Below are positions 5,769 through 44,558 of a stretch of 64,000 nt of DNA, piece by piece. The notes under the pieces are model-generated. The model saw only the letters and a list, made by a program, of their open reading frames with translations. It made no database searches and was not told the DNA's origin. This stretch comes from an uncultured bacterium (lineage in GTDB: Bacteria > Verrucomicrobiota > Lentisphaeria > Victivallales > UBA1829). Numbering within the stretch: the first letter of the stretch is position 1; each line of letters opens with the position of its first letter. The stretch spans positions 24,101 to 88,100 of the forward strand of contig URKJ01000012.1 in NCBI GenBank assembly GCA_900548385.1. Direction: 5' to 3'. The position numbers were made by a program, and so were the translations under genes.

Positions 5769-8700
5769 TCAGTAGACGATTTCAAAAAACGGAGTTCCGT
5801 TTTTCAGTTTTGACGTGTCCAGCGCAAGGATCAGCCTGCCGTTTTCCAGCGAGCAGGGGAGCTCCGCAAAACGGGTTCCGTCCAAATGAAGCGCGTAGAC
5901 TTTCGGCTTTTTCCCGTGTGTGGTCGCCAGTTCGATTCTGCATTGGATCGACTCCATCAGCACCGGCAGTTCGCCGGGATTCACGCAGCAGAACAGAGAG
6001 GCGTTTTCAAACGTCATGTTCGAGTTGAATGCGTTTGTCGCGACCGTCAGCAGGATGCGGGAAGCGTTTTTCAACGTCTGATCCGCGTTCAGCGATGCCG
6101 CCGTGACCGAGGCGGGAACAGAGACATTCCGCACGGAGAGGGCGGGCAGAACGGCGCTTTGCCCGCGTTTGAGGATCGCTCCTTCCAGTCGCGGCGTGAC
6201 CACGTTCATGGTGAGCCGGTTCGTGTCCAGCGTCAGCTCTCCGGTTTCGCTCTGATAAATGCGTTTGTTCCAGTCGGTTTTATTGGCGGAGGAGAGAATC
6301 CCGCTCTGTCTCAGCTTGGCAAGCAGTTTCGGAAAGTCTGTGCCGTCGGAATTGTCCGCGCTGACGTACCAGCTGGAGACCCGGAGTGGCGAGAATGATT
6401 CCGGTTCCAGCTGGAGAGTCGGCGTGAAACTGCCGACCTTGACGAGCGGTTTTCCTTCCGGATAGAGAATTCCGGTTTTGGTCAGCATGGAGAGCTTGCC
6501 GTAATCGTCGGCGATCGCGGCAAGATAGTTGTCCGGAAACAGCCTGGAGTTTTTGAGCAGAAGCCCGACGGAATGCGGAGCCTCTTTCACATCTTTGCGC
6601 ATGAAAAGCAGTGCGGTGACGGTTTCGGAAGCGTGGGCGATCGGGTCCATTCCATGCTCCATAGTCCACATCGGATCCACGGTCAGCCGGATGGTGTCAT
6701 TATGCGGTGTAAGATTGTCCCATCCCTGAAGAGCCGCATAGGAGCCGAAATAGAGTCCGCGTTCATGGCGGTAGCGGTTGAATGAACTGTGCGAATACTC
6801 CGTGATCATGTACGGACGGTCAAAAAAGCGCGCGGTTGCGGCGGAACGGAAGTAGCTGGAACTCAGCGAGCTCGTCTGGTCGACGGTCATGTCATTATTG
6901 CGTCCGCCCATATAGACCGCCCCTTTGCATTTCGGGACCAGATTCCGGGTCGGTACCGGGTTCGGATGGGCGAAATAGGTGTGCTGGGCGATTGCCGGAA
7001 CCATGGACCGTGCAGGCACTTCCATCGTCCGCATGATCATGTCCCAGTGGTGGAACAGCCCCGGATAACCGGCTTTCCGGACGGTTTTGAAATACCATGC
7101 GGTCATTTCCCGCATCGTTTCGATCAGGAAATCTCCGGTGTCCCGTGCCGCCGTTCCGCCGCCGCGGAGAACGGATTCGCTTACCGTTCCGGCTTTTTCA
7201 AAGGTCACGTCCGCGCCCCATGCCTTGGAGAGAGCCCGTTCCGTTCCGTATTTTGCGCGCAGCCATGCCGCAAACGGTTTCCGGAAACTTTCGATCTCCT
7301 TGGAATTGCCCAGACGGAAGTCCTGTTCGTTGAAAAAGTTGACAAAAGCGACCGCCGGTTCATCTTTCAGTTTCGTTCCGGTGTACGGATTTTCCCGGTT
7401 CATCAGATAATTCACCGCAACTTCCCAGTGCTTCCGGAATTTCGGGTCGAACAGCAGCTGGTTTTTAGTGAGTTCGTCCGGACCTTCCAGATACGCCATT
7501 GAGTACCCCGGTCTGTTCATCAGGTCGATGTTCAGGTAGATTCCGCGGTCTTTGAAGCATTTCACAAGATAGTCGAAACGGTCCATGTTGCCCGGATCGA
7601 ACGGGATCTCTTCCGCCGTCTGCGGCAGTCCCGCCTGTGCGATTGTCCGGTGCGGGCGCTGGTGGATCTTGTAGCCGATCAGATAACGGTTGAGATAATG
7701 GACACGGATCAGGTTGTAACCCTGTGCGGCGATGGCGTCCGCAAACCGTTCAATATCCTGCTTGGTCCAGGTATGCGCCCGCAGCCGCCAGTAACTGGGA
7801 CTGAAGTTCATTCCGAAAAACCGGACGGTTTCATCCGGTTTCTTTTCAAACGCCAGTTTGCCGGCGGAATTGACGATGACGCGTCCATAAGTTCCCGCCG
7901 GTACGCGTTTTCCGTTCAGCTCGGAAAAATCAAGCGCGGTTCCTTTCCGGATCAGAAAACGGTCGTTCGGCAGCGGACGGTATTTTGCGGATTCCGTCAC
8001 TTTGAACAGTCGGAGCCTGGCTTCCGGGTCCGCTACATACGGGACCGCGCCGCAGACGAAGCGGCAGCCGTCACTTCCCGCCAGAACTTTTACCGAAAGC
8101 GTGTTTTTCCCTTTTTTCACCGGGATGTTGAAAACGTGGTTGGCGGGCGCAAACGGTTTGATCCGGTTGCCGTCCCGTTCCGTTCCGTACACCCGTTTTC
8201 CGTTGACCGAGGCGGTGAACCACCAGTCGGCGGCCATGCCGAGCTGCATGAATCCCTCTTCCGGCGATTCAAACTGATTGACGAAAACGAACTTCGTTTT
8301 TTCCGCCGGAGCTTTTCCGTTTTCAAGGACATGGAACGTATTGTCTTTCAGGGTGACGGACTGCGTTTTCCCGTCCGGAGTTGTCAACTGCCACTGCGGG
8401 GCAAGAGCGAGCGGCAGAATTTTCGGCGCATCGGAGAGAGTCGCGGGACCGAAAAAGAGTTCTCCGCTTTCCGGGTAGGAGGCAAGCATCATTCTCGGCA
8501 GAACGTATTCGCCGCCGGGAGTCAGCTCCATTTTGAAATCCAGCGTGCAGGTCTGCCACTCCGGGGAGACGCTCAGGACCCGGAAATTTCCTTTCTGCAG
8601 GGGAGTGTATGGCGCTCCCGCCAGCGCGGGAACGATCCGTATTTCTCCGTTCCGGTTTCCCCTGTACTGGAATTGGATCCGGTAGCTGCGGTCTTTTTCC

Positions 8701-8963
8701 AGTACGCCGCGATACAGAAACGATACCTGGATCGCATGGCCTGGCGCACCGTGCGCCACCTGCTTCAGCGTGACTTTCAGAACGGGTTTCCCATCCGGAG
8801 TGGTTTCGTCTGTGATTGTTTTTTCCAGCATTGACCCTTTTGCCGCATAGAAGATCATACGGTCCGTTTTCAAGTCGCGTTCCGTTTCGTAACTCCATGT
8901 TTTAAGCTCTCCGGCGGAGCAGAGAAGGGTGGAAAACAGCAGTATCGTCAGTAATTTATACAT
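5769..8963 (-). CDS. large secreted glycoside hydrolase, clan GH-A TIM barrel with N-terminal beta-sandwich/CBM-like regions
   Basis: ORF 5769-8993, with start set at ATG 8963 (RBS GGAAAGGAA; signal peptide MYKLLTILLFSTLLCSAGE). FFNEQD (acid/base NE) and MITEYSH (nucleophile E) motifs. F..WLRAKYG....L..AWG pattern. Confidence 0.6.
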   Translation of the reverse strand: MYKLLTILLFSTLLCSAGELKTWSYETERDLKTDRMIFYAAKGSMLEKTITDETTPDGKPVLKVTLKQVAHGAPGHAIQVSFLYRGVLEKDRSYRIQFQYRGNRNGEIRIVPALAGAPYTPLQKGNFRVLSVSPEWQTCTLDFKMELTPGGEYVLPRMMLASYPESGELFFGPATLSDAPKILPLALAPQWQLTTPDGKTQSVTLKDNTFHVLENGKAPAEKTKFVFVNQFESPEEGFMQLGMAADWWFTASVNGKRVYGTERDGNRIKPFAPANHVFNIPVKKGKNTLSVKVLAGSDGCRFVCGAVPYVADPEARLRLFKVTESAKYRPLPNDRFLIRKGTALDFSELNGKRVPAGTYGRVIVNSAGKLAFEKKPDETVRFFGMNFSPSYWRLRAHTWTKQDIERFADAIAAQGYNLIRVHYLNRYLIGYKIHQRPHRTIAQAGLPQTAEEIPFDPGNMDRFDYLVKCFKDRGIYLNIDLMNRPGYSMAYLEGPDELTKNQLLFDPKFRKHWEVAVNYLMNRENPYTGTKLKDEPAVAFVNFFNEQDFRLGNSKEIESFRKPFAAWLRAKYGTERALSKAWGADVTFEKAGTVSESVLRGGGTAARDTGDFLIETMREMTAWYFKTVRKAGYPGLFHHWDMIMRTMEVPARSMVPAIAQHTYFAHPNPVPTRNLVPKCKGAVYMGGRNNDMTVDQTSSLSSSYFRSAATARFFDRPYMITEYSHSSFNRYRHERGLYFGSYAALQGWDNLTPHNDTIRLTVDPMWTMEHGMDPIAHASETVTALLFMRKDVKEAPHSVGLLLKNSRLFPDNYLAAIADDYGKLSMLTKTGILYPEGKPLVKVGSFTPTLQLEPESFSPLRVSSWYVSADNSDGTDFPKLLAKLRQSGILSSANKTDWNKRIYQSETGELTLDTNRLTMNVVTPRLEGAILKRGQSAVLPALSVRNVSVPASVTAASLNADQTLKNASRILLTVATNAFNSNMTFENASLFCCVNPGELPVLMESIQCRIELATTHGKKPKVYALHLDGTRFAELPCSLENGRLILALDTSKLKNGTPFFEIVY

Positions 8964-8989
8964 GGTCGGGTTCCTTTCCGTGGTTTGGT

Positions 8990-9718
8990 TCAATTATATG
9001 GCATCCAGTTTTTCTGCTTCGCCGGCAGCCATTGCTGACTGACGGTGTAATGGTCGTGAGAGCCGACGTGTCCATCGAAAAACAGAACGTTTGCCCGGTT
9101 GTTGTGGGAATAAGCGACACCGCCCTGTTCCGGATTGTTTTCCGGATTGACCCAGTATGCAATATCCCATTTCCCTTCCGAATTGGTGGAGTTTGCCTTG
9201 CCGCGTGTTTCGATCCATTGGAGTTTGGAAGAGGGATTTTTCACTTTCCGCAGGTGCATTGCTTTATAGCCGTTCTGCAGGGTGGCTTGGGAGCAGTTGA
9301 TCGCATAGAAGCTGATCCGTACGGTTCCGATGTATCTCGCCCATACTCCGACAGTGGCTCCGTTATATTCATTACATTTCCAACGTTCGATTTGCGGACA
9401 GAGCACTTTTTTCGGTACCCATGTGGCTGCCCAGTCGTTTTTGTTGAGAAGCATCCGGATGAAGTGCAGGGTATGCGTACCGGTGTTGTACCAGGGGGAA
9501 CCGCCGCTGCCATCAATGTTCGGAAACATCACGTCTTCGTTCTCGCTCAGGTACATCGCGGAAACCGTTCCGATGGTTTTCATGTTGGAGGTGCATTGAA
9601 TCGCCCGCGCGGTTTCCCTCGCTTTGTTCAGCGCCGGAAGAAGCATTCCGGCAAGAATCGCGATAATTGCGATTACTATGAGGAGTTCTATAAGGGTGAA
9701 CTTTGTTCTTTTCTTCAT
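8990..9718 (-). CDS. prepilin-type N-terminal methylation-domain protein, H-X9-DG (DUF1559-like) family
   Basis: ORF 8990-9784, with start set at ATG 9718 (RBS AAGGAG). N-terminus [36 protein letters not shown]-terminal [12 protein letters not shown]. Confidence 0.85.
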
Positions 9719-9755
9719 ATCTGTTTTTCTCCTTTCCATGGTTTTTCTCTGTATC

Positions 9756-9784
9756 ATTATACTATATTTTCCTGTTTTTGACAA
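9756..9784 (-). promoter_or_regulatory. sigma70-type promoter of the pilin-like/GH operon
   Basis: Minus strand: TTGTCA (9784-9779), 17-nt spacer, TATAAT (9761-9756). Lies 37 nt upstream of ATG 9718. Confidence 0.6.
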
Positions 9785-9798
9785 CCCCTGTTTGTGAA

Positions 9799-9824
9799 AA
9801 AATACTGAAATAAAATGAACAATG
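9799..9824 (-). repeat. 26-nt upstream element, copy 1 (identical to 11058-11083)
   Basis: Plus-strand AAAATACTGAAATAAAATGAACAATG. Lies exactly 14 nt upstream of the -35 hexamer at 9784-9779. Confidence 0.9.
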
Positions 9825-9826
9825 AA

Positions 9827-10954
9827 TTATTTCAGCACGTCGTTCACAACGCGTCTGACCGCTTCGAGGCGCGCATAGCCGTACTGTCTGTCCGGTTCCA
9901 GATAGGCACCCTCCGTCCACTCGTTCCAGCAGGCGAGATGCAGCAGTTCGGCGGTTGATTCCGGCGAAGCCGCGAACCGGGCGATGTGGCGCAGTGCCTG
10001 TTCGAACAGCTCCGGCGTGTTGTTGACAACGACCGTTCCGAACGGATAGCCGACTTTCTCGAACATATCCGACTGCACCGTGCGCGGGGAGCAGTCCCAG
10101 CCCGGCGTGACGACCGGATTGTAGGGAACGTTCAGCTTTTCCGTGATTTCCGCGGCAAAATTCCGGTTGCGTTCGAACCAGTCGGCATATTCCATCTTCG
10201 GGAATCCCTCCAGTCCGCTCCAGTTGTAGGCGGAGACCATGTCGAATCCGGCGTCTTTAATGGAAGCGTTGAGCACGTCCGGTTCGTTCCAGCGGTCCCA
10301 GCAGAAAAGATTGGAGTCGAGCGTGAGTGTTCCGAGTCCGGCTTTTTCGACTCTTGCGCGGAAATCGTCGAACAGCATCCGCGCGGCGCGGGGACCGCCG
10401 AGGTCGCGGATCATCCGGGACGGCTGGAAGATCGAAAAGTAAACGCCGCCGTTGACGCGCAGATAGTTCGGCTTGCCGAAATATTCGCGGATGCAGTGAT
10501 CGGTGCAGCGGATAAACGTTTCCGGCGTTGTTCTGCCGATCGTTCCCCAGAGCGGTTCCGCGGGTTTCCAGTAGCTTCCGGGGTGCGCATACATCGGGTC
10601 ATGGTTCGCCCACATCAGAGCGAATTGCAGATCGGCGCAGTTCGGAGCTTTCAGAAATCCTTCCTGAAGGCAGCGTTCCCGGTAGGAACCGTCTTCAAAA
10701 TAATACCAGTCGAAAATGAATGCGTCGATTCCGTGTTTTGTGGCGTCGGCGATTTTGCGTGTCATGACTGCCGGATCGGCTTCGTCGTCGAATCCGTACA
10801 GCGGTTCTTTCGGCTGTTCGTGTCCTTCGAAACGGGGGGTCGCGTACCGGGTCACGCGCCATTCGGTCCATCCTTTTCCGTGGATGCTTTCGTTCCGTGG
10901 GTCGACATGCCAGTTCGGGAAATAATACGAACAGACAATCGGTCTCTTCTTCAT
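9827..10954 (-). CDS. GH99-like / WbsX-family protein
   Basis: 375-aa ORF. YYFPNWH, GWTEW and IDAFIFDWYYF motifs typical of this family. No signal peptide. Confidence 0.7.
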   Translation of the reverse strand: MKKRPIVCSYYFPNWHVDPRNESIHGKGWTEWRVTRYATPRFEGHEQPKEPLYGFDDEADPAVMTRKIADATKHGIDAFIFDWYYFEDGSYRERCLQEGFLKAPNCADLQFALMWANHDPMYAHPGSYWKPAEPLWGTIGRTTPETFIRCTDHCIREYFGKPNYLRVNGGVYFSIFQPSRMIRDLGGPRAARMLFDDFRARVEKAGLGTLTLDSNLFCWDRWNEPDVLNASIKDAGFDMVSAYNWSGLEGFPKMEYADWFERNRNFAAEITEKLNVPYNPVVTPGWDCSPRTVQSDMFEKVGYPFGTVVVNNTPELFEQALRHIARFAASPESTAELLHLACWNEWTEGAYLEPDRQYGYARLEAVRRVVNDVLK

Positions 10955-11014
10955 GATCGGTTTCCTTTGAGTTTTCGTTTTTTACGGCTTTCCGTAAATG
11001 TTCCGTGCAGATTT

Positions 11015-11043
11015 ATTATACAATAATTCCCGGTTTTCCGCAA
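11015..11043 (-). promoter_or_regulatory. sigma70-type promoter of the GH99-like gene
   Basis: Minus strand: TTGCGG (11043-11038), 17-nt spacer, TATAAT (11020-11015). The spacer is 13/17 identical to that of the promoter at 9756-9784. Confidence 0.55.
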
Positions 11044-11057
11044 GAACCGTTCCGGGG

Positions 11058-11083
11058 AAAATACTGAAATAAAATGAACAATG
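11058..11083 (-). repeat. 26-nt upstream element, copy 2 (identical to 9799-9824)
   Basis: Same 26-mer, again exactly 14 nt upstream of a -35 hexamer (11043-11038). On the plus strand it ends 2 nt before TTGACA at 11086-11091. Confidence 0.9.
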
Positions 11084-11140
11084 GCTTGACAAACCGCGCC
11101 GGATGTGGCATGGTATTTCCGGAAATCGGGGAGAACTGCA

Positions 11141-12109
11141 ATGCCGGGAAAAATCACGATGGAGGATCTTGCACGGGAAGCGGGCTGTTCGCGTCCGCAG
11201 GTGTCGCGCGCATTCAACGGAAAACCGAATGTTGCGCCGGAAGTGCGGGAACGCGTGCTCGCCGCCGCGAAGCGTCTCAACTACCGGAACACGGCGAACC
11301 GCCGTCAGATACGGATTGCCGTGATCACGCAATCCATCGGCAGTATTTACGGCTCGGTGATGCTGGATGCTCTGATGAAGCAGGCCTGCGAACGGAACTG
11401 GGTCTGTCACATCGTGCACGAACAGTTCATACATACGATCTCCGATTATTTCTACGACGGCGCGATCAGTCTGATCTTCAACGATTCGTGGGCGCGGAAA
11501 TGGGCCGAGGAACGGACGACTCCGCTGGTGATGGTCAACAGCTACGGGACGGCGCTTGATAAAGTCTGTTCCGTTGATCCGGATTCTTACGACGGCAGCT
11601 GTCTTGTGCTCCGCCATCTGAAGCGGCTTGGGCACAGGAAAATTGCCCGTGTCCATATCGTCGGTCCGGGGGAAGTGACTTATCATCGCGGACAGAACGA
11701 GTTTCTGAGAGCCGCCGCCGAACTCAATCTCGGCGATTCCGTGCGGAATTTTCAGTTTGTGGAGCAGAGTACGCTGAAAAGCGGTCTTCTTTCCGTTCTG
11801 GAACAGGGATTTACGGCGGTGTATATGATTCATCAAAGTCTGGCGGTTCCCGCGGCGAAGGTGATTCTGGATGCGGGATACCGGATTCCGGAAGATGTGT
11901 CGCTGGTGACTTACGAGTTGAACGGCATATCCGCCCATCTCATGCCGCCGCATACCACGCTTGATTTTGATTACAGTGCGCTTGCCCGCCGTGCGTTGGA
12001 AGAGCTCCGTTTGCGGATGCTCGGCAGAGCGACCGGCGGCGGATCGGTTCTGATTCCCAATATTCTCACCGTGCGCGGTTCGACAGGCCCGTGTTCCCGT
12101 AAGAGCTGA
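11141..12109 (+). CDS. LacI-family transcriptional regulator
   Basis: ORF 11105-12109, with start set at ATG 11141 (RBS GGGGAG 7 nt upstream). HTH ITMEDLAREAGCSRPQVSRAFNGKPNVAPEVRERVLAAAKRLNY, followed by a PBP-type sensor domain. Confidence 0.85.
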   Translation: MPGKITMEDLAREAGCSRPQVSRAFNGKPNVAPEVRERVLAAAKRLNYRNTANRRQIRIAVITQSIGSIYGSVMLDALMKQACERNWVCHIVHEQFIHTISDYFYDGAISLIFNDSWARKWAEERTTPLVMVNSYGTALDKVCSVDPDSYDGSCLVLRHLKRLGHRKIARVHIVGPGEVTYHRGQNEFLRAAAELNLGDSVRNFQFVEQSTLKSGLLSVLEQGFTAVYMIHQSLAVPAAKVILDAGYRIPEDVSLVTYELNGISAHLMPPHTTLDFDYSALARRALEELRLRMLGRATGGGSVLIPNILTVRGSTGPCSRKS

Positions 12110-12165
12110 CAGTTCCCGTTTCCCCGCAGCCGGATGCGGTGTTATGAATTTTTCATTTGTGTCTC

Positions 12166-12195
12166 TTGACTTTTCCGGAAACGAGGGCATATTAT
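12166..12195 (+). promoter_or_regulatory. promoter of the second LacI gene with embedded 10-bp palindrome
   Basis: TTGACT (12166-12171), 18-nt spacer, TATTAT (12190-12195). The palindrome TTTCCGGAAA (12172-12181) abuts the -35. Confidence 0.5.
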
Positions 12196-12226
12196 CAGTT
12201 AACCCGGTTTAATCGACAGGAATCGA

Positions 12227-13237
12227 ATGAAAGTAACGATCAAAGACATTGCGCGGAAAGTTCAGGTTTCAAAGACGCTGGTTTCGCTGTATCTGAACGA
12301 TCATCCGCTTTCGGCGAAGATTTCGGCGAAAACCAAGGCACGGATTGATGAAGCGGTCCGGGAGCTTGGGTACCGTCCGAGTTTCGCCGCGCGCGCTCTG
12401 GCGAAAGGACGAACCGGGACGATCGGGATGATCGTCGGGGCGATCCGCGATCCGTTTTCCTATTATCTTGCCGATCTTGCGATGCGGGAGGTGGAACGCT
12501 ATCACTGCCAGCTGTTGCTTATGATGACGAATCAGGACCGGCGGGACCGCAACCGCTGTCTGGAACGGCTGTTGGAGAACCGGGTGGACGGCGTGCTCTG
12601 CTGTTCCGAGCTTCCGTCGGATACTCCGCTGTATGTCGAACTTCTGGCGCGCCGCTTTCCGCTTGTCGCGGTGAACCGGAAACAGGCGGATTTCTCCTGC
12701 ATATACAATGATTTTTCTCCGGCGGTGGATGAGCTGCTCGCCTGTCTGGATTCCATCGGGGCGGAAACGCTTTACCTGATCAGCACGGCAGGCAACCGGA
12801 TCGCCGGGCTTTTGCGTTCCGGCTGTGCGGCACACGGGATCCGCCTGACGGCTTCCCGGAATCTTGTCACCGACTCTGATATGGAGGCGATCTGCGGAAC
12901 CGTTCTGCGGCGTCGGCCTCCGTTTCTGTTTCTGACGAACTGCCGTGCGGCGCGGGTGGTTGTCAACGAGATCCGTCGTGCCGGAATTGACTATTTCCCT
13001 GCGATTTTCACGGTTTATACACTTCCCGCCGATATGATCGACGATTCCCGGATTGCCGGTGCGATCCAGTACAATTTTACCCCGCTGATCACCTGCGGGC
13101 TCGAAATGCTGAACCGTCAGCTGGAAGCCTCCGGAACAGCGGAGCGCGAAGAGACCGTACTGCCCGCGCGTTTTCTCCGGCAGGACCGGTTTTGTGAGCT
13201 TGAAACTCTCGGACGTTACAATTTCAGAACCAGCTAA
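12227..13237 (+). CDS. LacI-family transcriptional regulator
   Basis: 336 aa. HTH VTIKDIARKVQVSKTLVSLYLN...ARIDEAVRELGYRPSFAARAL, followed by a PBP-type sensor domain. Confidence 0.85.
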   Translation: MKVTIKDIARKVQVSKTLVSLYLNDHPLSAKISAKTKARIDEAVRELGYRPSFAARALAKGRTGTIGMIVGAIRDPFSYYLADLAMREVERYHCQLLLMMTNQDRRDRNRCLERLLENRVDGVLCCSELPSDTPLYVELLARRFPLVAVNRKQADFSCIYNDFSPAVDELLACLDSIGAETLYLISTAGNRIAGLLRSGCAAHGIRLTASRNLVTDSDMEAICGTVLRRRPPFLFLTNCRAARVVVNEIRRAGIDYFPAIFTVYTLPADMIDDSRIAGAIQYNFTPLITCGLEMLNRQLEASGTAEREETVLPARFLRQDRFCELETLGRYNFRTS

Positions 13238-33005: not shown

Positions 33006-34037
33006 ATGGCGGATACGGCGGTTTCAGAATACATGAAAATACGGCGTTATGTGGTCAATCTGATTTACAAAGCGCGCGGAAAATCAATTCAGGTCCCGAC
33101 GATTTTGGAACTGGCGAAACAGTTTGGCGTAAGTCATGCGACGGTGAGCAAGGCGATGAAGGAGCTTACGACAGAGGGCTTTATCATCGGCCGGCGCGGT
33201 ATCGGATCGTTCACGAATCCGCGTCTGAGTGCTGCCGGCGGTATCCGGGAGCTGCCGGTGATCGGGATTCTGATGGAGGACGGCATGGGGGTGCATTTCG
33301 ACAAATACCTGGCACCCATTCTCGGGCAGATGCTTCAGCAGTTGGTCTGCCTGCCGGCGACGGTTCATCTCCTGACTCTGGGGAGCCTTGACCCTGAAGT
33401 TATGCACCGTGAGATTGTCAACGAGCAGCTCGACGGGCTCCTGTGGAATTGTCCCGAGGAAAGAGGCGTTGAGGTTGCCCGGCGGCTGCGGAGGGACGGG
33501 CTCCCTGTTGTTCTTCTCGGGAAGAAAGCCGAGGGGCTCTCCTCCGCCATGTTCGATTTTGAAGGATGGGGGATGGAGTGCGGAAAACAACTGCTGAAAG
33601 AGGGGCGGCGGAACGTCGTATTCCTGCCGGATGTGTTTCCGTGGAACCGTTCTTTCGGCGGAATTCGCGGAGTATACCGGGAAGCGGGCATTTCCCTCAA
33701 TGAGAATTTGTTTCTGAAGGACAGCTTCTCCTGTCTGGAGGAGTTGAAGCGGGTGATTGCGTACGGAGTTCCTGTCGATGCGGTCTGCAATACGCTTTTT
33801 TCGGAAAACGAGGTGAATGACGTTTTGCTGGCGGCGGATCCGGGGATCGTCTCCCGGTGCTGTCTGGTTCAAAGCTCCCTTGCGGCGGCACCGCACCCGG
33901 GCTTTCACCGGATCATCTATGGACTGCCGTTCGAGGAACTGATCGGAGAAGGAGTGGCTTTGATGAGGCTGGCTCTGGAGAAAAAAGATTCTCCCGGAGA
34001 GTGCCGGAAGGTCAGGCTGCCGATGATAATAAAATAA
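33006..34037 (+). CDS. AraR-type regulator (GntR winged-HTH + LacI/PBP-type sugar-sensor domain)
   Basis: 343 aa. wHTH PTILELAKQFGVSHATVSKAMKELTTEGFIIGRRGIGSFT, then a LacI-like periplasmic-binding-fold domain. Confidence 0.75.
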   Translation: MADTAVSEYMKIRRYVVNLIYKARGKSIQVPTILELAKQFGVSHATVSKAMKELTTEGFIIGRRGIGSFTNPRLSAAGGIRELPVIGILMEDGMGVHFDKYLAPILGQMLQQLVCLPATVHLLTLGSLDPEVMHREIVNEQLDGLLWNCPEERGVEVARRLRRDGLPVVLLGKKAEGLSSAMFDFEGWGMECGKQLLKEGRRNVVFLPDVFPWNRSFGGIRGVYREAGISLNENLFLKDSFSCLEELKRVIAYGVPVDAVCNTLFSENEVNDVLLAADPGIVSRCCLVQSSLAAAPHPGFHRIIYGLPFEELIGEGVALMRLALEKKDSPGECRKVRLPMIIK

Positions 34038-34052
34038 CGGGAGGTGTTTTTT

Positions 34053-34787
34053 ATGAAAGGAAAAGTGAAAAAATTTACGCTTCTAGAACTTTTAATTGCA
34101 ATTTCTGTAATTGCCATTCTTGCAGGACTTTTGCTTCCGGCATTGAACAAGGCCCGGGAGAGGGCGTACCAGGTCAAGTGCATGGGAACGATGAAGACGA
34201 TGATTTTCGCCGCACTGCAGTATGCCGATGACAGCGGCGGCAGGATGCTGCCGAGACAGACGACCTCCGATTTCATGGGATCGACCTGGGCCAGGAATGA
34301 ACATTTTCTGGAATTCGCGGGAATCAAATTCAGCAAGAACTATCCGATGTATTGGTATAAGCCGTTCATGTGTCCGACGGTGGATTTGACAAAGAAAGGC
34401 TGGAACCGGGAGGACATCGGAATGGCAACCAGTATTTACGGTATGCAGGATAAGATGGATCCTCTGACTCTGGAAGAGAGCCGGGAAACCGGAGTAATGC
34501 TGAATCAGGTGTTTGCCCCTTCATCTAAAATCTTTTTTCAGGAGTCAACCTATGGAGGACATCCGGTTGTTGGCAGCGGAACAAATCGCTCCTGGACATT
34601 GACTTATGGAGAAAATTTTGGTCAGGAGGGGCTGTCGGCGGGACAGAACTGGATCACATACCGCCACAATGGCCAATCCGCATCGAACAACGCTTATTAC
34701 GACGGTCATGTGGAGTGTAATGGCTATGCGTCCATGACTGATTCTTCTTCCCGCAGAAACAAACGGCTTTATTATAAGTATAAATGA
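34053..34787 (+). CDS. prepilin-type N-terminal methylation-domain protein, H-X9-DG-like family
   Basis: ATG 34053 is preferred (GGGAGG 9 nt upstream; the ORF track starts at GTG 34044). N-terminus [37 protein letters not shown]-terminal H-x11-DGHV. Confidence 0.85.
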   Translation: MKGKVKKFTLLELLIAISVIAILAGLLLPALNKARERAYQVKCMGTMKTMIFAALQYADDSGGRMLPRQTTSDFMGSTWARNEHFLEFAGIKFSKNYPMYWYKPFMCPTVDLTKKGWNREDIGMATSIYGMQDKMDPLTLEESRETGVMLNQVFAPSSKIFFQESTYGGHPVVGSGTNRSWTLTYGENFGQEGLSAGQNWITYRHNGQSASNNAYYDGHVECNGYASMTDSSSRRNKRLYYKYK

Positions 34788-34799
34788 AAGGAGCATTTC

Positions 34800-37700
34800 A
34801 TGAAAGTTAAATGGATCTTTTGTGTCCTGACCGCTGCGCTGTTTTTATGCGCCGCGGAAAAACCGGAAGATTTTCAGCCGGATTTCAAGACCTGGGACAT
34901 CTATCTGCCGCACCTGAACCGGACCTATCTTTCCGGCTGGTGGAAGTTGAAAAAAGTCTCGTCGGATCGCAGAAACGATCCCCTCGACGAAGGTACGAAG
35001 CGGAAGTTTCATCTCCCCGAAACGGATGACTCCGGCTGGGGGAAAGATCTTGTCCCGAACAATCTTCATGCACCGTTTTTGAGTCCGAATGCCACACGGG
35101 AGGAAAGAACTTGGGGCGGAGTCGCGTGGTTCCGGAAAGAATTTACCGCCCCCGAATTGAAGAAAGGGGAACGCGCGATCCTGCATTTCAATGAAGTGCT
35201 CGGCATATTCAAAGTCTGGGTGAACGGAACGCTTGTCGGCGAACAGGATTTCACCATGCCGACAAAATATTCGGATTACAAAGGTCCCGGAGACCAGTAT
35301 GATTATGATGTAACGGAACAGCTGCGTCCGGGTGCGAAAAATACGATTGCCGTGCGGTTGTTCCATACCGGGGAACCTGTGATGTGGAAAATCTGGGCGC
35401 CTTACTGCGGAATTCTGGGAACGGTGTATCTTGATGTAAAGCCCCCCGCATGGAGCGACCGGATTCTTGTCACGCCCGAAAAGAATCTCCGGGACGTTTC
35501 GTTCGAGTGTCTGCTCTCCGGTTCGGAGAACACGGAGGACACTGATTCCTGGAACGCGGAGATTTTTGAATGGAATAGCGGAAAGCGCGTGGCTTCGGCG
35601 GTGTTCGGGAAGGCTTATGCAGGGGATGGCGGACGTTATGTCGCGGGGAAGGCCTCCATTGAAGATGCGAAACTCTGGTCGCCGGAATCGCCGTTCCTTT
35701 ACGGAGTGAAACTCCGGAACCGGAAGGGGGAAGTGACCGGCGTTCAGCGGTTCGGAATGCGCACTTTCGGCGTGAAAGACGGCAATTTCGTGCTGAACGG
35801 AAAACCCGTCATGCTTCGCGGAATCTGCCAGGGGAACGAATATCCGCGGAACAGTCACGGCTATTCGTTTGCCATGACGACGAACGAGGGTGACGCCCTG
35901 CGCCGGTATTGGCAGGCATACAGGGATTCGAACGTCAATCACATCCGCATTCACAGCTGCGAACATTCGCCGAATACATACGACATCATGGACGAGCTCG
36001 GCTTCATTCTGACCGATGAACTCACCTATCCGACGGTCCACCTGAAAAACGCGGTTCTGGCGGAACTGATCGATACGAAAAGTTTTGACAGCGCCAGCGA
36101 CAAGACCGGAAAGCTGCTTCCGCAGTTTATCGGAAAGATCACCCGCCGGATTCACCGCAACTATTCGCATCCCTCCATCTGCACATACAGTTTCGGCAAC
36201 GAACTTCGCGATTATTCCGGACGCGCCGCAACGATGCTGAACAACCTTTACGATCTGTACCACCGGATCGACCGGCAGGGACGTCCGGTTACTTCCTCGT
36301 CCGGCAGATTCTGGAAGGACGGCAGCAATGTCGAAGAGCTCTGCAAAACGGAAAAAATGGATTATGCCGATACCCATGACTACACCGGGAGCATCAACAA
36401 TATGCCTTTGGCATACTGCCAGCCGGTGGCGGAACATTTTGTTTCGCTGCTCAAAAAACACTTTCCCGGCGGAAAGGTGCCGATCGTGAACGGAGAGACT
36501 GTTTATTTCGCCCAGCATTATTATGCCGGCATCACAGATGGAATCTGGCCGGAGGAAAGCGATAATTCTCCGAATTGGAAAAAGGCGCTGTTTGCACTCA
36601 ACGACTGGCATGCCAAAGAGCGCGGAACCGCTTTCCTCGCTCTCTACTGGATACGAAACTGGGGAATGAAAAATTACAAATTCCATCGTGATCTCGGCCG
36701 CGGAATTTACACGGACCGGATTCTGGAAGTCCAGCGGAAACTCTGGCCGGATATGGACGGTTTCGAGGCGCTTTCCGGTCCGTTCTTCCGGATGCCGAAA
36801 TCGGCGTATCCGTTTGACCGCCTGAAGTTTGAACCGAATGAAGCGTATTCCTACCTGCGCCGTGTTTGTGCGCCGCAGATCGTGATCCTTGATTATGTCG
36901 CGCCCAACCGGTTTACGGGAGAAACGGTTTCGACAAATGCGTATCTGATTAACAATTCGGAACGCGATGTGGAAAATGCCGTTCTTGAAATCGGTTTTGA
37001 ACGGAACGGAAAGTCCGTCGGCGGAACGCTGGCAAAAAAGATCGGCACGGTAAAAAGCAATGAGAAGAAAATCATCCCTGTTGAATTCAAACTTCCCGGA
37101 CGGGACGGGGCGTACCGGCTGGTGTACCGTTTCCTGTCCGGCGGAAAAGAGCTGAACCGCAGGGACGGCGATCTGAATCTCCGGAGCCGCGCGGAACTCT
37201 TTGCTCCGTTGAAGACTGCGAAGAGGATTGCGCTTTACGATGCTTCCGCCGTTTTCGGCGGTCTCAAACCTTACAGTTCGACGAAAGTGCTGAAGGCGTT
37301 CGGTGTGCCGTTCGTTCCCGTGGAGGATTTCAAAGAACTGAGGAAATATGATGTCCTGGTGATCGGCAACGGCTCCGTGGACGGGAAAGTGGCGGATGGC
37401 GCGGACGGAATCAGGGCATTCGTTGAAAACGGCGGGCGTCTGCTCGTTTTCGATCAGACCGTTTCCGGTCGGATTCCGTTCCTGCCGGAACTGGAATACT
37501 CGCTTGCGGGACCGGGGCAGTTCTCCGAGATTCTTCAGTTCGACCATCCCGTATTGAAGGGAATGACGCAGAAGGAGTTCTTCTGCTGGAATCAGAAAGA
37601 CTGGTCCGTGTACCGGGCTTACATCCGTCCTGTTTCGGAAGCTGCGCTGACGGTCGGCGGCAATTCCGGATCGTGGGGTGCCGACGCATTCGGCATGGTG

Positions 37701-38492
37701 TCCGCTCATTTGAAGCTCGGAAAAGGCGATGTGCTGATGACGCAGGCGGAAGTCACTTCCACGTTCCGGTCGGATTCCGGTGCCGCGCTTTTGGCCCGCC
37801 GTCTTTTGGAAACCGTTCTGGACGATGCAACCCGGAAAAACGCCTCGCCGTTTCGCGGGTACGAGGTCAAGGTTAAAGGACTGAAAGCGTCCCGCGCAAA
37901 GTTCATTTCCCTGAAAAATGCCGCGAATATGGCGTTTGCAGACGAGATTGCCAGAGACGGGAAGGGCGGGTGGACCGATCAGGGAGCCGTCAACGATCTT
38001 TCCCCGTTTCCCGTCGGCAGACGGATTTTCGGCGGTGTTCCGTTTCAAATCATTGATCCTGCGGAAAACGGCGGCCGCTCCTGCGTCGTCGTTTCCGGCA
38101 ACAGGACGCTTCCGTTTCAGCCGCGGAGCCGGAGTATCGAAATCGGCGGGCGGGTGAAGCGTCTTCTGTTCCTGCATTCCGGCGCGTGGATCGCTCCCGA
38201 CGGCGGACAGGTCGGCGAATATGAGGTTCGGTATGCTTCCGGGAAAACGTGGTCGATTCCGGTTGTGGAAGGGGTGAACATTACAGACTGGTGGGGACCA
38301 TCCAAAAAATTGAAATCGGCGATGTGCGGGTGGAGCGGTATGAATAAGAGCGGGGTCGTGGGTGCGTTCCTGTATTCCTGGGACAATCCGCATCCCGAAG
38401 ATCAGATAAGTTCGATCGTGTTGAAAACAAAAGGAAACGCCGTGGTGGGTCTGCTTGGCCTGACGGCAGAAAAAACGGAGGAGTCCGAATGA
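34800..38492 (+). CDS. secreted GH2-family glycoside hydrolase with ~600-aa C-terminal extension
   Basis: 1230 aa. Signal peptide MKVKWIFCVLTAALFLCAAE. GH2 blocks WFRKEFTAP..., LWSPESPFLY, NGKPVMLRG, acid/base FGNEL. The extension includes a flavodoxin/GATase1-like stretch YDVLVIGNGS...ENGGRLLVFDQ. Confidence 0.75.
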   Translation: MKVKWIFCVLTAALFLCAAEKPEDFQPDFKTWDIYLPHLNRTYLSGWWKLKKVSSDRRNDPLDEGTKRKFHLPETDDSGWGKDLVPNNLHAPFLSPNATREERTWGGVAWFRKEFTAPELKKGERAILHFNEVLGIFKVWVNGTLVGEQDFTMPTKYSDYKGPGDQYDYDVTEQLRPGAKNTIAVRLFHTGEPVMWKIWAPYCGILGTVYLDVKPPAWSDRILVTPEKNLRDVSFECLLSGSENTEDTDSWNAEIFEWNSGKRVASAVFGKAYAGDGGRYVAGKASIEDAKLWSPESPFLYGVKLRNRKGEVTGVQRFGMRTFGVKDGNFVLNGKPVMLRGICQGNEYPRNSHGYSFAMTTNEGDALRRYWQAYRDSNVNHIRIHSCEHSPNTYDIMDELGFILTDELTYPTVHLKNAVLAELIDTKSFDSASDKTGKLLPQFIGKITRRIHRNYSHPSICTYSFGNELRDYSGRAATMLNNLYDLYHRIDRQGRPVTSSSGRFWKDGSNVEELCKTEKMDYADTHDYTGSINNMPLAYCQPVAEHFVSLLKKHFPGGKVPIVNGETVYFAQHYYAGITDGIWPEESDNSPNWKKALFALNDWHAKERGTAFLALYWIRNWGMKNYKFHRDLGRGIYTDRILEVQRKLWPDMDGFEALSGPFFRMPKSAYPFDRLKFEPNEAYSYLRRVCAPQIVILDYVAPNRFTGETVSTNAYLINNSERDVENAVLEIGFERNGKSVGGTLAKKIGTVKSNEKKIIPVEFKLPGRDGAYRLVYRFLSGGKELNRRDGDLNLRSRAELFAPLKTAKRIALYDASAVFGGLKPYSSTKVLKAFGVPFVPVEDFKELRKYDVLVIGNGSVDGKVADGADGIRAFVENGGRLLVFDQTVSGRIPFLPELEYSLAGPGQFSEILQFDHPVLKGMTQKEFFCWNQKDWSVYRAYIRPVSEAALTVGGNSGSWGADAFGMVSAHLKLGKGDVLMTQAEVTSTFRSDSGAALLARRLLETVLDDATRKNASPFRGYEVKVKGLKASRAKFISLKNAANMAFADEIARDGKGGWTDQGAVNDLSPFPVGRRIFGGVPFQIIDPAENGGRSCVVVSGNRTLPFQPRSRSIEIGGRVKRLLFLHSGAWIAPDGGQVGEYEVRYASGKTWSIPVVEGVNITDWWGPSKKLKSAMCGWSGMNKSGVVGAFLYSWDNPHPEDQISSIVLKTKGNAVVGLLGLTAEKTEESE

Positions 38493-39329: not shown

Positions 39330-42300
39330 TTATTCCGGCCGGACCAATATGCCGCCTGCCCTGGAACGGTCGCGCAGATCGACGTTGAAACCGAGGAACC
39401 GGATCGGAAAGTCGATTGTCCCATTGCGTTTTCCGCCGTACCGGATCACCTTTTTGCCGAAGATTTCCGTCGGCTTGAACGTCAGACTTTGCCATACTCC
39501 CGGTTTTACATTGCGGAGCTCCTGCTTTAACTGGAATGTTTCGCCGGAATGGTCCAGCAGGAGCAGACTGACGGCTTTGACATTGTCCGTTTCCGGGAGA
39601 AAACGGAATTCGACGGTGCGTTTCAGTTCTTTTGCCGAGGCGGCGAACGGATAGGGTACGGTACGGAAAATATTGCCGTATCCGCGCTGCGGCGAGGCGA
39701 TCCAGGAAAGTCGCAGAGCAGTCTCTTTTTCGGCGCCTTTCAACTGGAAACCTTTGGAATAGTTGCACCAGCTTCCGGTTTTGAGCTTTGCCGGAGCCGA
39801 GATCAGCATTACGCGATCGGTGAACTGCCGTCCATCCGCCGTTTGGAACAGAGCGGTCAGATAACGGTAATCTCCGGTCGGGAAATCGGCGGGAACGTAC
39901 AGTGTAAACGTCGCGGTTCCCATTCCGTCCGCCGGGATCGTCAGATGCCGTTCCGCCGGTGTGACTTTCCACAGGAATTCCCGCCACGAAGCGGAAGCAT
40001 CCAGACGGATAGTTCCTGTCAGCGGCGCTGCCGACTGATTGTAAATCCGGACAGTGACGGTTTTTGCCTGTTTCGGGGCGGCGTTCAGCCGGACGCCTTT
40101 CATTTCATCGCAGCCGCGTCCCATGTTGTCCGCATCCGGCAGAATACGGACCGTTGCGGCGGTTTCCGGGAATATTTTTCTGCCTGCCGTGGTTTTAACG
40201 GTTTCCAGTTCCGGAGTCAGTTTTCCGCGGACAAATACCGGATATTCGTCCACGGGGACCGCGATTTCACCGTTCCGGTTTTTCAATGTGGATACAACGC
40301 CGTCCGAGGAGACAAGTTCCGCATCGCCGGAGGCTTTGATCCGGACCGTTTCCGCCGGATGAATGAGTTCTGCAAACGGGATTTCGAACCGGTCATAGCC
40401 GTAGGCGTCGTTGCGCCAGAATGCCAGAACGTCGCGTCCGGCTTTGTCGCGGAATGCGAAACCGGCGATCTTTCCCGCGGCAAAGGAGTGTCCTTTGATA
40501 AAGCCCCGGAATGCGGCATCGCCGATCATCCGTGCAGTGGTGCGGTATGCCGCCGCTCCGGGTTTCGGAAGACCGTAGCGGTTGGTCATTCCGAAATCCT
40601 CTTCCAGATAATCAAGCGGAACATCGCGGAATGTGTAGACCAGCACTTTCGAGGCACCGAACGCTTTTCCGCCGACCATCGTTTTCGGAACGTGGAGAGC
40701 AATATAGCGCGCGACTTCCTCCGGGGAACGCTGCGGGATGACGTGGCGGGCGCTGTAAGTCGAAACGCCGATTTCCGTCAGCCAGACCGGTTTTTCCGCG
40801 ATTCCCGCGGCTTCCATGGAACTGTTCAGCTGACGGCATTTTCCGGCGATTCCCCAGAAACCGGGAACATAGAAGCCGTAGATATGCGCGGCGACCGCAT
40901 CGGTCAGTTTTCCGGTTCCGAGCCGCAGGACGGGATCGTGGTGTGCGGAAACGTCGCCGAGAATGATGTTGGCTTGCGGATCCGCAAGCCGGATCGCCTT
41001 TGCCAGCGTTTTGGCATACTGCGCATAATCTTCCGGCATCATTTTCCAGTAATAGGGTTCGTTGCCGAGTTCCCAGTCGTGGATGTCGTTCTTGTATTTC
41101 TGAACCATTTGGAAGACTTCTTCCGCCGCGTTTGCGAACTCCGGCGCAATACCGTGTTCCGCCCATTTTGCGCAGACCGCACTGTTTGCGCGGCTCTGTT
41201 CCATCTGCCTGGGACTATAGCCGCGGCAGATCAGAAGCGGCCGGAAGCCATGTTTGCGGACGACCCGGAAGAGGTCGCGTGCACCTTCGCGCTCGTTTCC
41301 CGCGTCATTGCGGATGATGCTCACGCCGAGTTCCCGGAGAATGTCAAAATCAGGCAGTTCGTTTGTGTAGGAGTTTGCCCAGCGCTGAAGATGAACCGTG
41401 AACCCGAAATCTCCATCGGCTCCGTAATCCGGCATTTTCTCCCGCATGACGGCAAACGGAATCCGGACCGCCTTTCCTTCGTATGCCGGATCGTCCGGGA
41501 ATACGGAAAGTTCATAATAGCCGTCTTTGGCGGGGAGCGGGAAACGATGGATGCTGACTCCCTGTTTCAGATCGGTTTTGACCGTGTTTTCGGAAACGGT
41601 TTCTCCCCGTGCGTTGCGGATTTCAAGTTTCAGGACCGCCTGTTTCCGGGCGTTTGCCGAACGGATTTTCAACTCTCCCTGTGACGGAGCATCCGCAAAG
41701 AAGAAGTTCTTTTTTGTGTTCAGCAGCGGAGCGATTGCAAGATCGGAAGTGGAGGCAACACGGAATCCGCCGTATTCTTCTTCGGAATTGTCGTTTCTCT
41801 GCAGGAAGCGGATCGTGTTGAGCAGATCGGGATCCTGTTGTTTGTCGTTTGCGCCCAGAAAGACCGGGGCTCCGGCGTAGTACTTGTTTTCCATCCATTC
41901 GCTGACTCCGGAGGCGTGATTGCGGATGCCGTAATGGGACGGTTTTCCGGCGTCTGCTTTGGTGATGACGGGATAACCGCCTTTGCCGTCATAGAATCCC
42001 GCTTTGTAGAATTCGTGCATGTCAGGCAGAAAATAGAGACGCGGCGAATCCGGCGTCGTCAGATCCCGCCAGCCGATGATGCCGGGGGCGGAAGAGCCGT
42101 TCGGGCGTGTCCCCCGGAAAATCCGGTAGACCGGTCCCCTGGAGAGCCAGTTGCAATACCGGGCGGCATCGACGCGGCTTACATGGTTAACGGGTTTTTC
42201 CGCGTCTTCCGGCGAAACTTCGTACCGGTATGCGCCCTCGTTTCCGGTGCGGCGGATCCGCATTTTCGGATTGTACAGGCCGTCAGGATCACTTGCTGCG

Positions 42301-42506: not shown

Positions 42507-42516
42507 GGGAACCACC

Positions 42517-43200
42517 TCACCACGGAGCCGTTGCTATGCCGCTTTCCCAGGAGAGATATCCCCACCAGGCATAACGAGTTTCCGGAAATTCCCGGTTCAT
42601 AGTATCTCCGACACGGCGGAAACGGATGCTTTGGACGTGACCGTCGAGGAATGCGCCGTTCATGTTCATGCCATGATCCCAGCGCAGTTGTTTGTAGGCG
42701 GTCGCATCGCCGAAAAAGTGATAACTGACGATCCAACTGGTTGTTTCCAGAATGGTCGGGCATTTGGTCGGACGGGACACTTTTTCGATTCTGACCGGAG
42801 ATTTCGGGGATTTCTGACTGTCCATTCCGTGCCACATGATGAGATTGTTTCCGCCGTAACCCTGTGTTCCGTTCATCGGTTTGCGATTGGAAGGGCATTG
42901 CCAGACTTTATTGTTCATTTTCTGATTTCTCTGCCGTCCGCCGAGATACATACGGTCCAGAATCCCGTGCCACTGATTGTCGAATTCCATGGAAGTGGTG
43001 GAAGAGACGCACGGAACAATGAAGCCGGTATCATTCGCATACATGGTGACGGCTGATATCTGCTGTTTCATGTTCCCCATGCATGCCATCTGCTGCCCTT
43101 TTTCCCGTGCCTTGTTCAGTGCCGGCAGGAGCATTGCTGCGAGAATTGCAATGATTGCGATTACGACGAGGAGCTCTATGAGGGTAAATCTCCGTTTCAT
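42517..43200 (-). CDS. prepilin-type N-terminal methylation-domain protein, H-X9-DG family
   Basis: 227 aa. N-terminus [34 protein letters not shown]-terminal [18 protein letters not shown] overlap with the regulator gene. Confidence 0.88.
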
Positions 43201-44367: not shown

Positions 44368-44396
44368 ATTATACAACAAAATCATGAAAATGTCAA
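44368..44396 (-). promoter_or_regulatory. consensus sigma70 promoter of cassette c
   Basis: Minus strand: TTGACA (44396-44391), 17-nt spacer, TATAAT (44373-44368), preceded by ccctc and a T-rich tract. Lies 43 nt upstream of ATG 44324. Confidence 0.65.
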
Positions 44397-44558
44397 GAGG
44401 GTAATTCAGAAAAAAATTGAATTTTGTCAGAATGCGAATGGACAAAGCGGAGATCATTTTATAAAACAGCTGTTGAAAATCACCGTAAAAAACAGCGGTT
44501 TCTTAGGAAGCAGAGCGGAATTTTTGAGACTTTATATGCATTTTCTTATTTTTAAGAG

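Follow-up and report, generated by a model that had tools for sequence, protein, structure and literature searches.

Gene content of the locus

We describe a 26-nt element, AAAATACTGAAATAAAATGAACAATG, which occurs at positions 9799-9824 and 11058-11083 (plus-strand coordinates) of a 64-kb stretch of DNA, hereafter the window, from an uncultured human-gut Lentisphaeria bacterium. The two copies lie in a sugar-degrading gene cluster. The same locus was found, identical, in many gut metagenomes and metagenome-assembled genomes (MAGs), and its homologs carry Lentisphaeria names. On the minus strand, the cluster is arranged in the order GH99-like gene, pilin-like DUF1559 gene, 1064-aa hydrolase-like gene and GH127 gene (GH, glycoside hydrolase).

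The GH99-like (WbsX-family) gene (9827-10954, minus strand), flanked by both copies of the element, matched Pfam PF14307 (Glyco_tran_WbsX; E = 4.5e-45), and its homologs are named 'glycoside hydrolase family 99-like' by NCBI. The pilin-like gene (8990-9718, minus strand) matched PF07596 and PF07963, with a prepilin N-terminal methylation motif and a DUF1559 domain. We placed its start at the ATG at 9718 (242 aa), as called in L054. In public gene calls (L001:7198-7965), the -35 hexamer's TTG serves as the start of this open reading frame (ORF; 255 aa), but the true start is almost certainly the ATG rather than the upstream TTG. Downstream of the pilin-like gene, an ORF of 1064 aa (GH-A; 5769-8963, minus strand) encodes a large glycoside-hydrolase-like protein with a weak Pfam match to Cellulase/GH5, just below the curated cut-off; the gene order around it is syntenic in two related loci (L011 and L018). 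Two regulator genes are found on the plus strand: LacI-1 (11141-12109; Pfam LacI and Peripla_BP_3), which is divergent from the GH99-like gene, and LacI-2 (12227-13237; Pfam LacI). A GTG at 11105 was discarded as the LacI-1 start because an in-frame stop is present there in L054; the start is therefore the ATG at 11141.

Sequence and layout of the duplicated promoter module

The two copies of the 26-mer were exact, as an earlier sequence-only reading of this DNA had reported for a direct repeat flanking the GH99-like gene, and they were the only ones in the window. A search allowing up to three mismatches returned no additional match, none was expected from 100 shuffles, and the next-best matches across the whole window had 9 mismatches. 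With a repeat finder, the similarity extended over a 69-nt direct repeat (9756-9824 and 11015-11083; 77% identity). The duplicated unit is a whole promoter module, of which the 26-mer is the upstream end: on the minus strand, both copies consist of the 26-mer, a 14-nt linker, a TTGnnn hexamer, a 17-nt spacer and TATAAT.

The 26-mer's up copy (11058-11083, minus strand; CATTGTTCATTTTATTTCAGTATTTT when read on that strand) is located between the divergent GH99-like and LacI-1 promoters. The rest of the up module (11015-11057, minus strand) comprises the linker (11057-11044), the -35 hexamer TTGCGG (11043-11038), the spacer (11037-11021) and the -10 hexamer TATAAT (11020-11015). The mid copy (9799-9824, minus strand) begins 2 nt past the GH99-like stop codon, upstream of the pilin-like/GH-A promoter, and is followed by the rest of the mid module (9756-9798, minus strand), with the linker at 9798-9785, the -35 hexamer TTGTCA at 9784-9779, the spacer at 9778-9762 and the -10 hexamer TATAAT at 9761-9756. 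Direct reading bore out all the details of the sequence-only reading, both its hexamers and its counts for the linkers (ccccggaacggttc versus ttcacaaacagggg; 5/14 identical) and the spacers (13/17 identical). It also recovered the plus-strand TTGACA (11086-11091), 2 nt from the up copy, which is a candidate -35 hexamer of the divergent LacI-1 promoter; no convincing -10 hexamer was identified behind it.

Both modules show the features of sigma-70 promoters, namely near-consensus hexamers, a separation within 16-18 nt and an orientation toward a gene. The mid promoter (TTGTCA-17-TATAAT), which would serve the pilin-like gene together with the large GH gene further down, agreed with the consensus at 11/12 positions in a promoter scan. 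The up promoter (TTGCGG-17-TATAAT), which would drive the GH99-like gene, agreed at 9/12 positions by direct reading, with 3/6 for its -35 hexamer. It was therefore not listed by the scan, whose rule was 4/6, and is defined by direct reading and conservation. Plus-strand -10-like hexamers within the element (AATACT and TAAAAT) were also considered, but they had no conserved -35 partner in both copies.

The element is 81% A+T, in a genome of 54% G+C. It contains no CG and no dyad symmetry, and the best dyads of the region fall outside it. By direct reading, it includes two direct 10-bp units, TTCATTTTAT and TTCAGTATTT (7/10 identical), and two TTCA half-sites 10 bp apart (TTCA-N6-TTCA). Proteins binding in a head-to-tail manner typically have sites with such tandem direct units. 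Assuming a transcription start about 7 nt past TATAAT, the element would span about -75 to -50, with its centre at about -62 to -62.5.

Conservation of the element

Conservation was measured in a four-way alignment (7.7 kb) of the window, L054, L053 and L018. L018 is MAG HGM23471, with L052 as an independent assembly of that lineage (81% nucleotide identity to the window over 7.7 kb); L053-L055 share 92.5% identity with the window over 21 kb. Both copies of the element were kept in L018/L052 and in L053-L055, with unchanged 14-nt and 17-nt distances. Within the two 26-mers, 51 of the 52 columns were invariant, as against 161 of the 268 columns (60%) in the remainder of the two intergenic regions and 68% of the third codon positions of the GH99-like gene. 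Finding at least 51 invariant columns has a probability of about 1e-10 under the intergenic rate and of about 4e-8 under the third-position rate. All 26 columns were invariant in the up copy and 25 of the 26 in the mid copy, where the sole change was T21 to C in L053. Moreover, the longest invariant run of the alignment (43 nt; 11051-11093), which exceeded any run in coding DNA, corresponds to the up copy extended by TTGACAAA on one side and CCCCGGA on the other, and includes the TTGACA at 11086-11091.

The other parts of the module behaved differently. The linker, the -35 hexamers and the 5' untranslated regions (UTRs) varied among lineages, with, for example, an up -35 hexamer of TTGCGG in the window and TTGTGG in L018, whereas the TTG, the TATAAT and the spacing were kept in the four lineages. 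The linker of 14 nt and the spacer of 17 nt were found in all five distinct copies, including a third copy in contig L031 (see below). Orthologs of each copy shared that copy's own linker type, so that the duplication is older than the species splits. The paralogous 26-mers have stayed constant since the duplication while their linkers diverged to chance level (5/14), a pattern that indicates purifying selection on the element. Together with the constant distances, the conservation of both copies supports the proposal of the sequence-only reading that this is a shared, position-fixed cis-regulatory element coupling two units.

Ten loci of the same species were identical except for one 1-nt deletion in the up copy of one sample. 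This deletion (L002:5873-5897), in which the G of CATTGTTCA was lost, was the only within-species variant among the ten loci. Identity within the species says little about the element, because the entire locus is nearly identical.

Distribution of the element and a third copy

A 20-nt core of the element was scanned against 185,579 species-representative genomes, as well as metagenome contigs. Within Lentisphaeria, it was found at the present locus only. Five other genomes, four archaeal MAGs and one Chitinophagaceae MAG, each contained a single chance match, and the metagenome-contig matches were limited to L052, L031 and an unrelated family of low-G+C contigs. Neither viral contigs nor plasmids contained the core. 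Within the window, a search for weaker copies, which allowed up to 9 mismatches to the full 26-mer and up to 3 mismatches to two sub-blocks, yielded nothing above chance; nor were sub-motifs enriched elsewhere in the window. The best weak match (17/26, at 44401-44426) is located upstream of the promoter of another pilin-like operon but 10 nt closer to the -35 hexamer, and was taken as an A+T-rich chance match.

The element is not a dispersed repeat, a transposable element of the miniature inverted-repeat type (MITE) or an insertion sequence fragment: no copies at unrelated sites and no terminal inverted repeats were seen. A dispersed repeat with no relation to promoters was the outcome that the sequence-only reading had set against its own proposal; the scans found the element at this locus only, and the extra copy in L031 has the same promoter geometry. 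As far as can be seen, any factor acting on the element would do so locally, and its 'regulon' would be the present locus alone.

L031 is a 4.3-kb gut contig with 1.5x coverage, which carries the mid copy (452-477) and, 2.1 kb downstream, a third copy (2549-2574) in front of a second pilin-like gene. The third module consists of a 14-nt linker, TTGTCA, a 17-nt spacer and TATAAT. The order in this contig is GH99-like gene, module, pilin A, about 1.1 kb of broken unannotated ORFs, module, pilin B and GH-A. Its identity to the window is mosaic, with about 70% inside the GH99-like gene and about 100% over the last 100 nt of that gene and module A, which could be due to recombination at the repeat or to chimeric assembly.

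The sequence GTTCATTTTATTTCAGTATTAA, identical to 20 nt of the element, was observed in unrelated contigs of 26-35% G+C (L029, at 1341-1366, L030, L033, L035, L037, L040, L041, L043-L045 and L047-L051). In L029, the site begins 25 nt upstream of a 447-aa ORF, which we take by eye to be a DEAD-box helicase (GSGKT, DEAD and HRVGRTAR motifs). There, GTTCATTTTATTTCAGTATTAA looks like a conserved leader of this ORF, and its coincidence with the element is probably fortuitous.

Origin of the mid module

In more distant orthologous loci (L011, L014, L024 and L056), 18-23 nt separate the GH99-like gene from the pilin-like gene, or the two were annotated as a single fusion, and no promoter lies between the two. 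The absence of the mid module from these loci indicates that it is a clade-specific insertion that split an ancestral operon; the up region is the ancestral one. L011 (78% amino-acid identity) has the same order of LacI, GH99-like, pilin-like and large genes as the window, and its divergent neighbour at the same position is an ortholog of LacI-1 (49% identity). Aligned with the window without gaps and anchored on the -35 hexamer, the L011 upstream region had 23/42 identities versus 12.1 ± 2.8 expected (p = 1.6e-4). The window units GTTCATTTTA-TTTCAGTATT correspond to TTGCAGTTTC-TTGCAGTCGA in L011. In both loci, the units form a direct tandem repeat of 10-bp period, whose end lies 19 nt upstream of the -35 hexamer. 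L011 does not contain the sequence of the 26-mer; TTGCAG is present twice instead, and this region is not A+T-rich. Further orthologs (L012, L014, L016, L024, L025, L028 and L056) were set aside as comparisons, since they have other neighbours, such as AraC-family regulators, and no element; only L011 was comparable.

Another divergent LacI/pilin-like intergenic region of L011 (150-440) contains three copies of TGTGAAAT(A/T)TT upstream of TTGACA-17-TATACT. The TGAAAT core of these TGTGAAAT repeats is also present within the 26-mer (plus strand, CTGAAAT).

A hairpin at the mid copy

A terminator-like RNA hairpin is predicted at the mid copy (9797-9838, minus strand). Its 5' arm (9838-9827) is formed by the final codons of the GH99-like gene together with its stop codon (GTGCTGAAATAA; GUGCUGAAAUAA), its loop spans 9826-9814, its 3' arm (9813-9802) is located inside the 26-mer (TTATTTCAGTAT; UUAUUUCAGUAU), and a U-run follows at 9801-9797. 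It thus consists of a 12-bp A-U-rich stem and a 13-nt loop, then 5-6 U. A 66-nt context folded at -18.1 kcal/mol (z = -3.9); the hairpin alone was predicted at -10.5 kcal/mol in the window, -12.5 kcal/mol in L053 and -6.9 kcal/mol in L018. Pairing was kept in 98% of the cells of an alignment of five sequences. One stem pair was G-U in the window, A-U in L054 and L031, G-C in L053 (via the T21 to C change) and a mismatch in L018. Covariation was suggestive but not significant, with 202 of the 500 shuffles reaching the observed value in these five sequences. No such fold was found at the up copy (z = 0.5), and the hairpin therefore cannot explain the conservation of the whole element. A terminator scan (at least three G-C pairs, loop of at most 8 nt) did not flag the mid hairpin, and an Rfam scan of 8800-12400 on both strands returned no match at E ≤ 1. 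Plausibly, the hairpin has a secondary role at the mid copy only, as a weak terminator located directly before the copied promoter.

Other operators and operons in the window

The spacer of the LacI-2 promoter (TTGACT-TTTCCGGAAAC...TATTAT) contains a CG-centred palindrome, TTTCCGGAAA, at 12171-12182, which L054 and L052 have retained; a similar palindrome at 1943-1954, just upstream of a sialate-esterase-like gene, is kept in L054. This motif is a candidate for a conventional LacI-type operator. With up to two mismatches, it occurred 20 times versus 6.8 expected, many of the occurrences being in coding DNA. The palindrome ATTTCCGGAAAT in the LacI-1 leader (11115-11126) was rejected as a conserved operator, as it was not conserved in L054 or L018, and a sigma-54 reading of the conserved GTGGCA in the same leader was rejected for want of a -12 element. 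A perfect palindrome with 7-bp arms (TTTACGG-CTTT-CCGTAAA; 10981-10998), located in the GH99-like gene's predicted 5' UTR, was observed in the window and in L053/L054, but was deleted in L018.

The N-terminal part of LacI-1 (11141-11330) has only about six residues (TANRRQ) between the YRN that closes the helix-turn-helix and the first core strand, IRIAVIT. LacI-family proteins typically have about 13 residues at this linker, including the hinge helix; PDB alignments were ambiguous at this position in LacI-1.

Two more operons, at 33006-38492 (plus strand) and 39330-44324 (minus strand), contain a GntR-type regulator, a pilin-like gene and a hydrolase of more than 1000 aa; in the former, the pilin-like position is held by an unannotated 244-aa ORF (34053-34787). 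Both are located behind a TTGACA-17-TATAAT promoter with TTG in front of its -10 hexamer (TTGTATAAT), a feature shared with the up copy. At 44382-44431, the upstream region contains an ATTCA-N9-TGAAT dyad, as well as the best (17/26) partial match to the 26-mer. The 375-aa, 227-aa and 1058-aa genes at 39330-44324 were considered as a paralogous cluster because of their matching lengths, but the proteins are unrelated except for the pilin N-terminus.

A putative binding site coupling two promoters

Taken together, these data suggest that the 26-mer, which forms the upstream end of a sigma-70-type promoter module, is probably a DNA site maintained by selection. On balance, and with moderate confidence, we favour its interpretation as the binding site of a sequence-specific factor that couples both promoters. 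A DNA-binding protein would occupy the element as two head-to-tail subunits on TTCA-N6-TTCA and, placed at this fixed distance and on this helical face, would contact RNA polymerase as class I activators do. In the ancestor common to this small clade of gut Lentisphaeria, a second copy of the module would have been placed between the GH99-like and pilin-like genes, splitting one operon into two units that share the same upstream control site, and the GH99-like gene and the pilin-like/GH-A genes would be switched together. As the up copy abuts the divergent -35 hexamer of LacI-1, it could control LacI-1 too. Activator-dependent promoters often have a poor -35 hexamer, and that of the up promoter (TTGCGG or TTGTGG) would fit such a dependence. 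The transcription start sites, the binding of a protein, activation as its effect and the identity of that protein are the parts of this scheme that we infer.

Several observations weigh against it. Twenty-six invariant positions exceed the needs of a typical transcription-factor site, the similarity between the direct units is modest (7/10), and, in its promoter-proximal third, the element looks like a distal UP subsite. Positions relative to the transcription start are derived from the hexamers only. The only regulators adjoining the locus belong to the LacI family, and the element has neither dyad nor CG. It is confined to four lineages of one narrow clade, and it is wholly absent from closer relatives with other neighbouring regulators (AraC).

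Alternative explanations

The A+T content of the element could also point to an enhancer that needs no factor, in which a UP element located far upstream, or an element of curved DNA, would directly recruit the C-terminal domains of the RNA polymerase alpha subunit. Of the 11 positions in the distal UP subsite consensus, which is reportedly AAAWWTWTTTT in the work of Estrem et al. 1998, 6-8 agree with the last 10 nt of the element, TCAGTATTTT (about -59 to -50); other strong promoters of the window also have A+T-rich upstream regions, and relative to the plus-strand LacI-1 promoter the element lies at about -37 to -62, the classical UP position. However, the 14 nt adjoining the -35 hexamer (-49 to -36; ccccggaacggttc and ttcacaaacagggg), where a proximal subsite would be located, are G+C-rich and variable, and about 16 nt of the element extend past -59. 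UP elements can undergo many A/T exchanges without losing function, and the proximal subsite is the more effective one; yet no A-to-T or T-to-A change was observed in nine lineage-copies, while the -35 hexamers varied. Moreover, the counterpart in L011 has the same repeat geometry in TTGCAG repeats that are not A+T-rich. We thus regard this explanation as possible but unlikely. Where the sequence-only reading had proposed either a UP element or an activator or anti-repressor site, a plain UP element has become the less likely of the two, the element being further upstream, separated by a G+C-rich linker and more strictly conserved than the -35 hexamers, and the factor site is favoured. The adjacent LacI proteins, with which that reading had proposed binding assays, are not obvious binders. 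For a reading in which the 26-mer is bound by LacI-1 or LacI-2, with repression or activation of both units as the result, it counts that LacI-1 is divergent from the up copy, with its candidate -35 hexamer abutting the element, that the LacI-1 ortholog of L011 occupies the same position with the homologous repeat in the same place, and that the plus-strand half-site TGAAA resembles the half-site of CcpA-type operators (TGWAANCGNTNWCA). LacI-family proteins normally bind CG-centred palindromes, and LacI operators are dyads of 14-20 bp, usually with a central CG; the 26-mer has neither, its half-sites are direct rather than inverted, and it is located upstream of the promoter, not over it. The CG-centred palindrome in the LacI-2 promoter spacer (TTTTCCGGAAAC), conserved in three lineages, is a more conventional operator candidate, and we consider a LacI operator in the 26-mer quite improbable. 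A particular form of this idea, in which LacI-1, with its seemingly short linker, would bind two direct TGAAA-type half-sites instead of a CG-centred palindrome and activate from -62, the module having been copied to wire the pilin-like genes into the same sugar response, is also doubtful at best; if true, it would represent a non-canonical mode of binding in the LacI family.

At the RNA level, the 26-mer could be mainly the 3' half of an intrinsic terminator, or of a hairpin stabilising the 3' end, for the GH99-like transcript. The 12-bp stem with its U-run (z = -3.9), the persistence of pairing in 98% of the cells and the fact that the sole substitution in a 26-mer turns a G-U pair into a G-C pair are consistent with this, but the up copy, at least as conserved, has neither the partner sequence nor the fold, and the third copy of L031 pairs differently. 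In addition, the stem is A-U-rich with a 13-nt loop and went unflagged by the terminator scan, covariation did not reach significance in five sequences, and the fixed 14-nt distance to the -35 hexamer is left unexplained, so that we give this explanation little credence. The module could instead be a recombination substrate or a mobile promoter cassette, copied and pasted so that its repeats shuffle gene cassettes rather than regulate them. Its insertion between genes that are contiguous in outgroups, and the extra cassette of L031 (a pilin-like gene and a second ORF bounded by two modules, with mosaic identity), would agree with such a role, and the reuse of promoters in front of unrelated genes has been documented in bacteria (PMC3575422). 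Against it, at most two or three copies were found, all at one locus, with none elsewhere in the species-representative genome or metagenome collections nor any among viral contigs and plasmids; neither terminal inverted repeats nor a recombinase-type dyad core could be seen; and L031, at 1.5x coverage, may be chimeric. The age of the duplication, with an element constant ever since, calls for a function other than mobility, and a cassette of this kind is very unlikely. Finally, two identical copies are what a recent duplication without function would leave behind. The rest of the module has diverged (77% identity overall, 5/14 in the linker), and both copies were already present in lineages that are 8-19% diverged, with an element essentially unchanged apart from T21 to C in L053. 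A neutral leftover is in effect excluded because the paralogous 26-mers stay identical while their linkers have diverged to chance level; we attach almost no probability to it.

Significance of the locus

The element is probably a genuine, if ordinary, site of transcription control that is specific to this locus. To our knowledge, almost nothing is known about the control of transcription in Lentisphaeria, or about the numerous 'pilin-like gene plus glycoside hydrolase' operons of the PVC group (Planctomycetes-Verrucomicrobia-Chlamydiae-Lentisphaerae), and no literature was found on the element or on Lentisphaeria promoter motifs. The locus offers a clean and testable promoter architecture, with a sharply bounded element under selection, and a short list of candidate binders; it is also a natural case of an operon split through an inserted copy of a promoter module. 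Its reach is small: a single locus within a narrow clade of uncultured gut bacteria, and a mechanism of a well-known class.

Comparison with known systems

The mechanism classes involved, an upstream factor site and the duplication or reuse of a promoter, are already known. Among these, class I activator promoters (CRP at -61.5, as in lac), whose site is centred near -61.5 or lies one or two helical turns higher upstream, share with the present modules a site of about 22-26 bp, which in the element would be centred near -62, a fixed spacing and an imperfect -35 hexamer, but differ in that the element has no dyad and is positioned from the hexamers only. The tandem sites of OmpR/PhoB-type regulators (pho box, OmpR F/C), which are defined by two direct half-sites at a 10-11 bp period, resemble the element in their direct half-sites, which in the element have a 10-bp period, in an A+T-rich spacer and in a location upstream of, or abutting, the -35 hexamer. 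The plus-strand sequence CTGAAATAAAATGAACA is similar in layout to the pho box, CTGTCATAAAACTGTCA, and we treat this as a lead only. Unlike these sites, however, the element has a period of 10 rather than 11 bp, its half-sites agree at only 7/10 positions, and no response regulator was seen beside the locus, where only the C-terminal part of a histidine kinase is present, at the window edge, 9 kb away. Among the Pfam-annotated genes (29 of about 45 predicted, from the first 46 kb of the window), the regulators were LacI, GntR and AraC proteins and one histidine-kinase fragment (22-543), with no response regulator.

UP elements of the rrnB P1 type are likewise A+T-rich and located upstream of the -35 hexamer of a strong promoter, and the 3' third of the element partly matches their distal subsite. 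They occupy an A+T-rich tract from -59 to -38 that includes the proximal subsite, of which only the distal part overlaps the element, whereas the element is located further upstream, behind a G+C-rich variable linker, and is invariant base for base. LacI-family operators resemble it in adjoining LacI-family genes in a sugar-utilisation locus, but the element has no palindrome or central CG and is located upstream of the promoter. Finally, as with putative mobile promoters, homologous promoter DNA is found before non-homologous genes of one genome, with no known mobile element. These were defined by at least 80% identity over at least 50 nt in front of non-paralogous genes (Matus-Garcia, Nijveen and van Passel 2012; PMC3575422). 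The present modules, whose downstream genes belong to different Pfam families, share 77% identity over 69 nt and about 76% over the 50 nt from the 26-mer (hand count); they also differ from putative mobile promoters in that the copies lie 1.26 kb apart within a single locus, the duplication is an old one and just a part of the module has remained constant.

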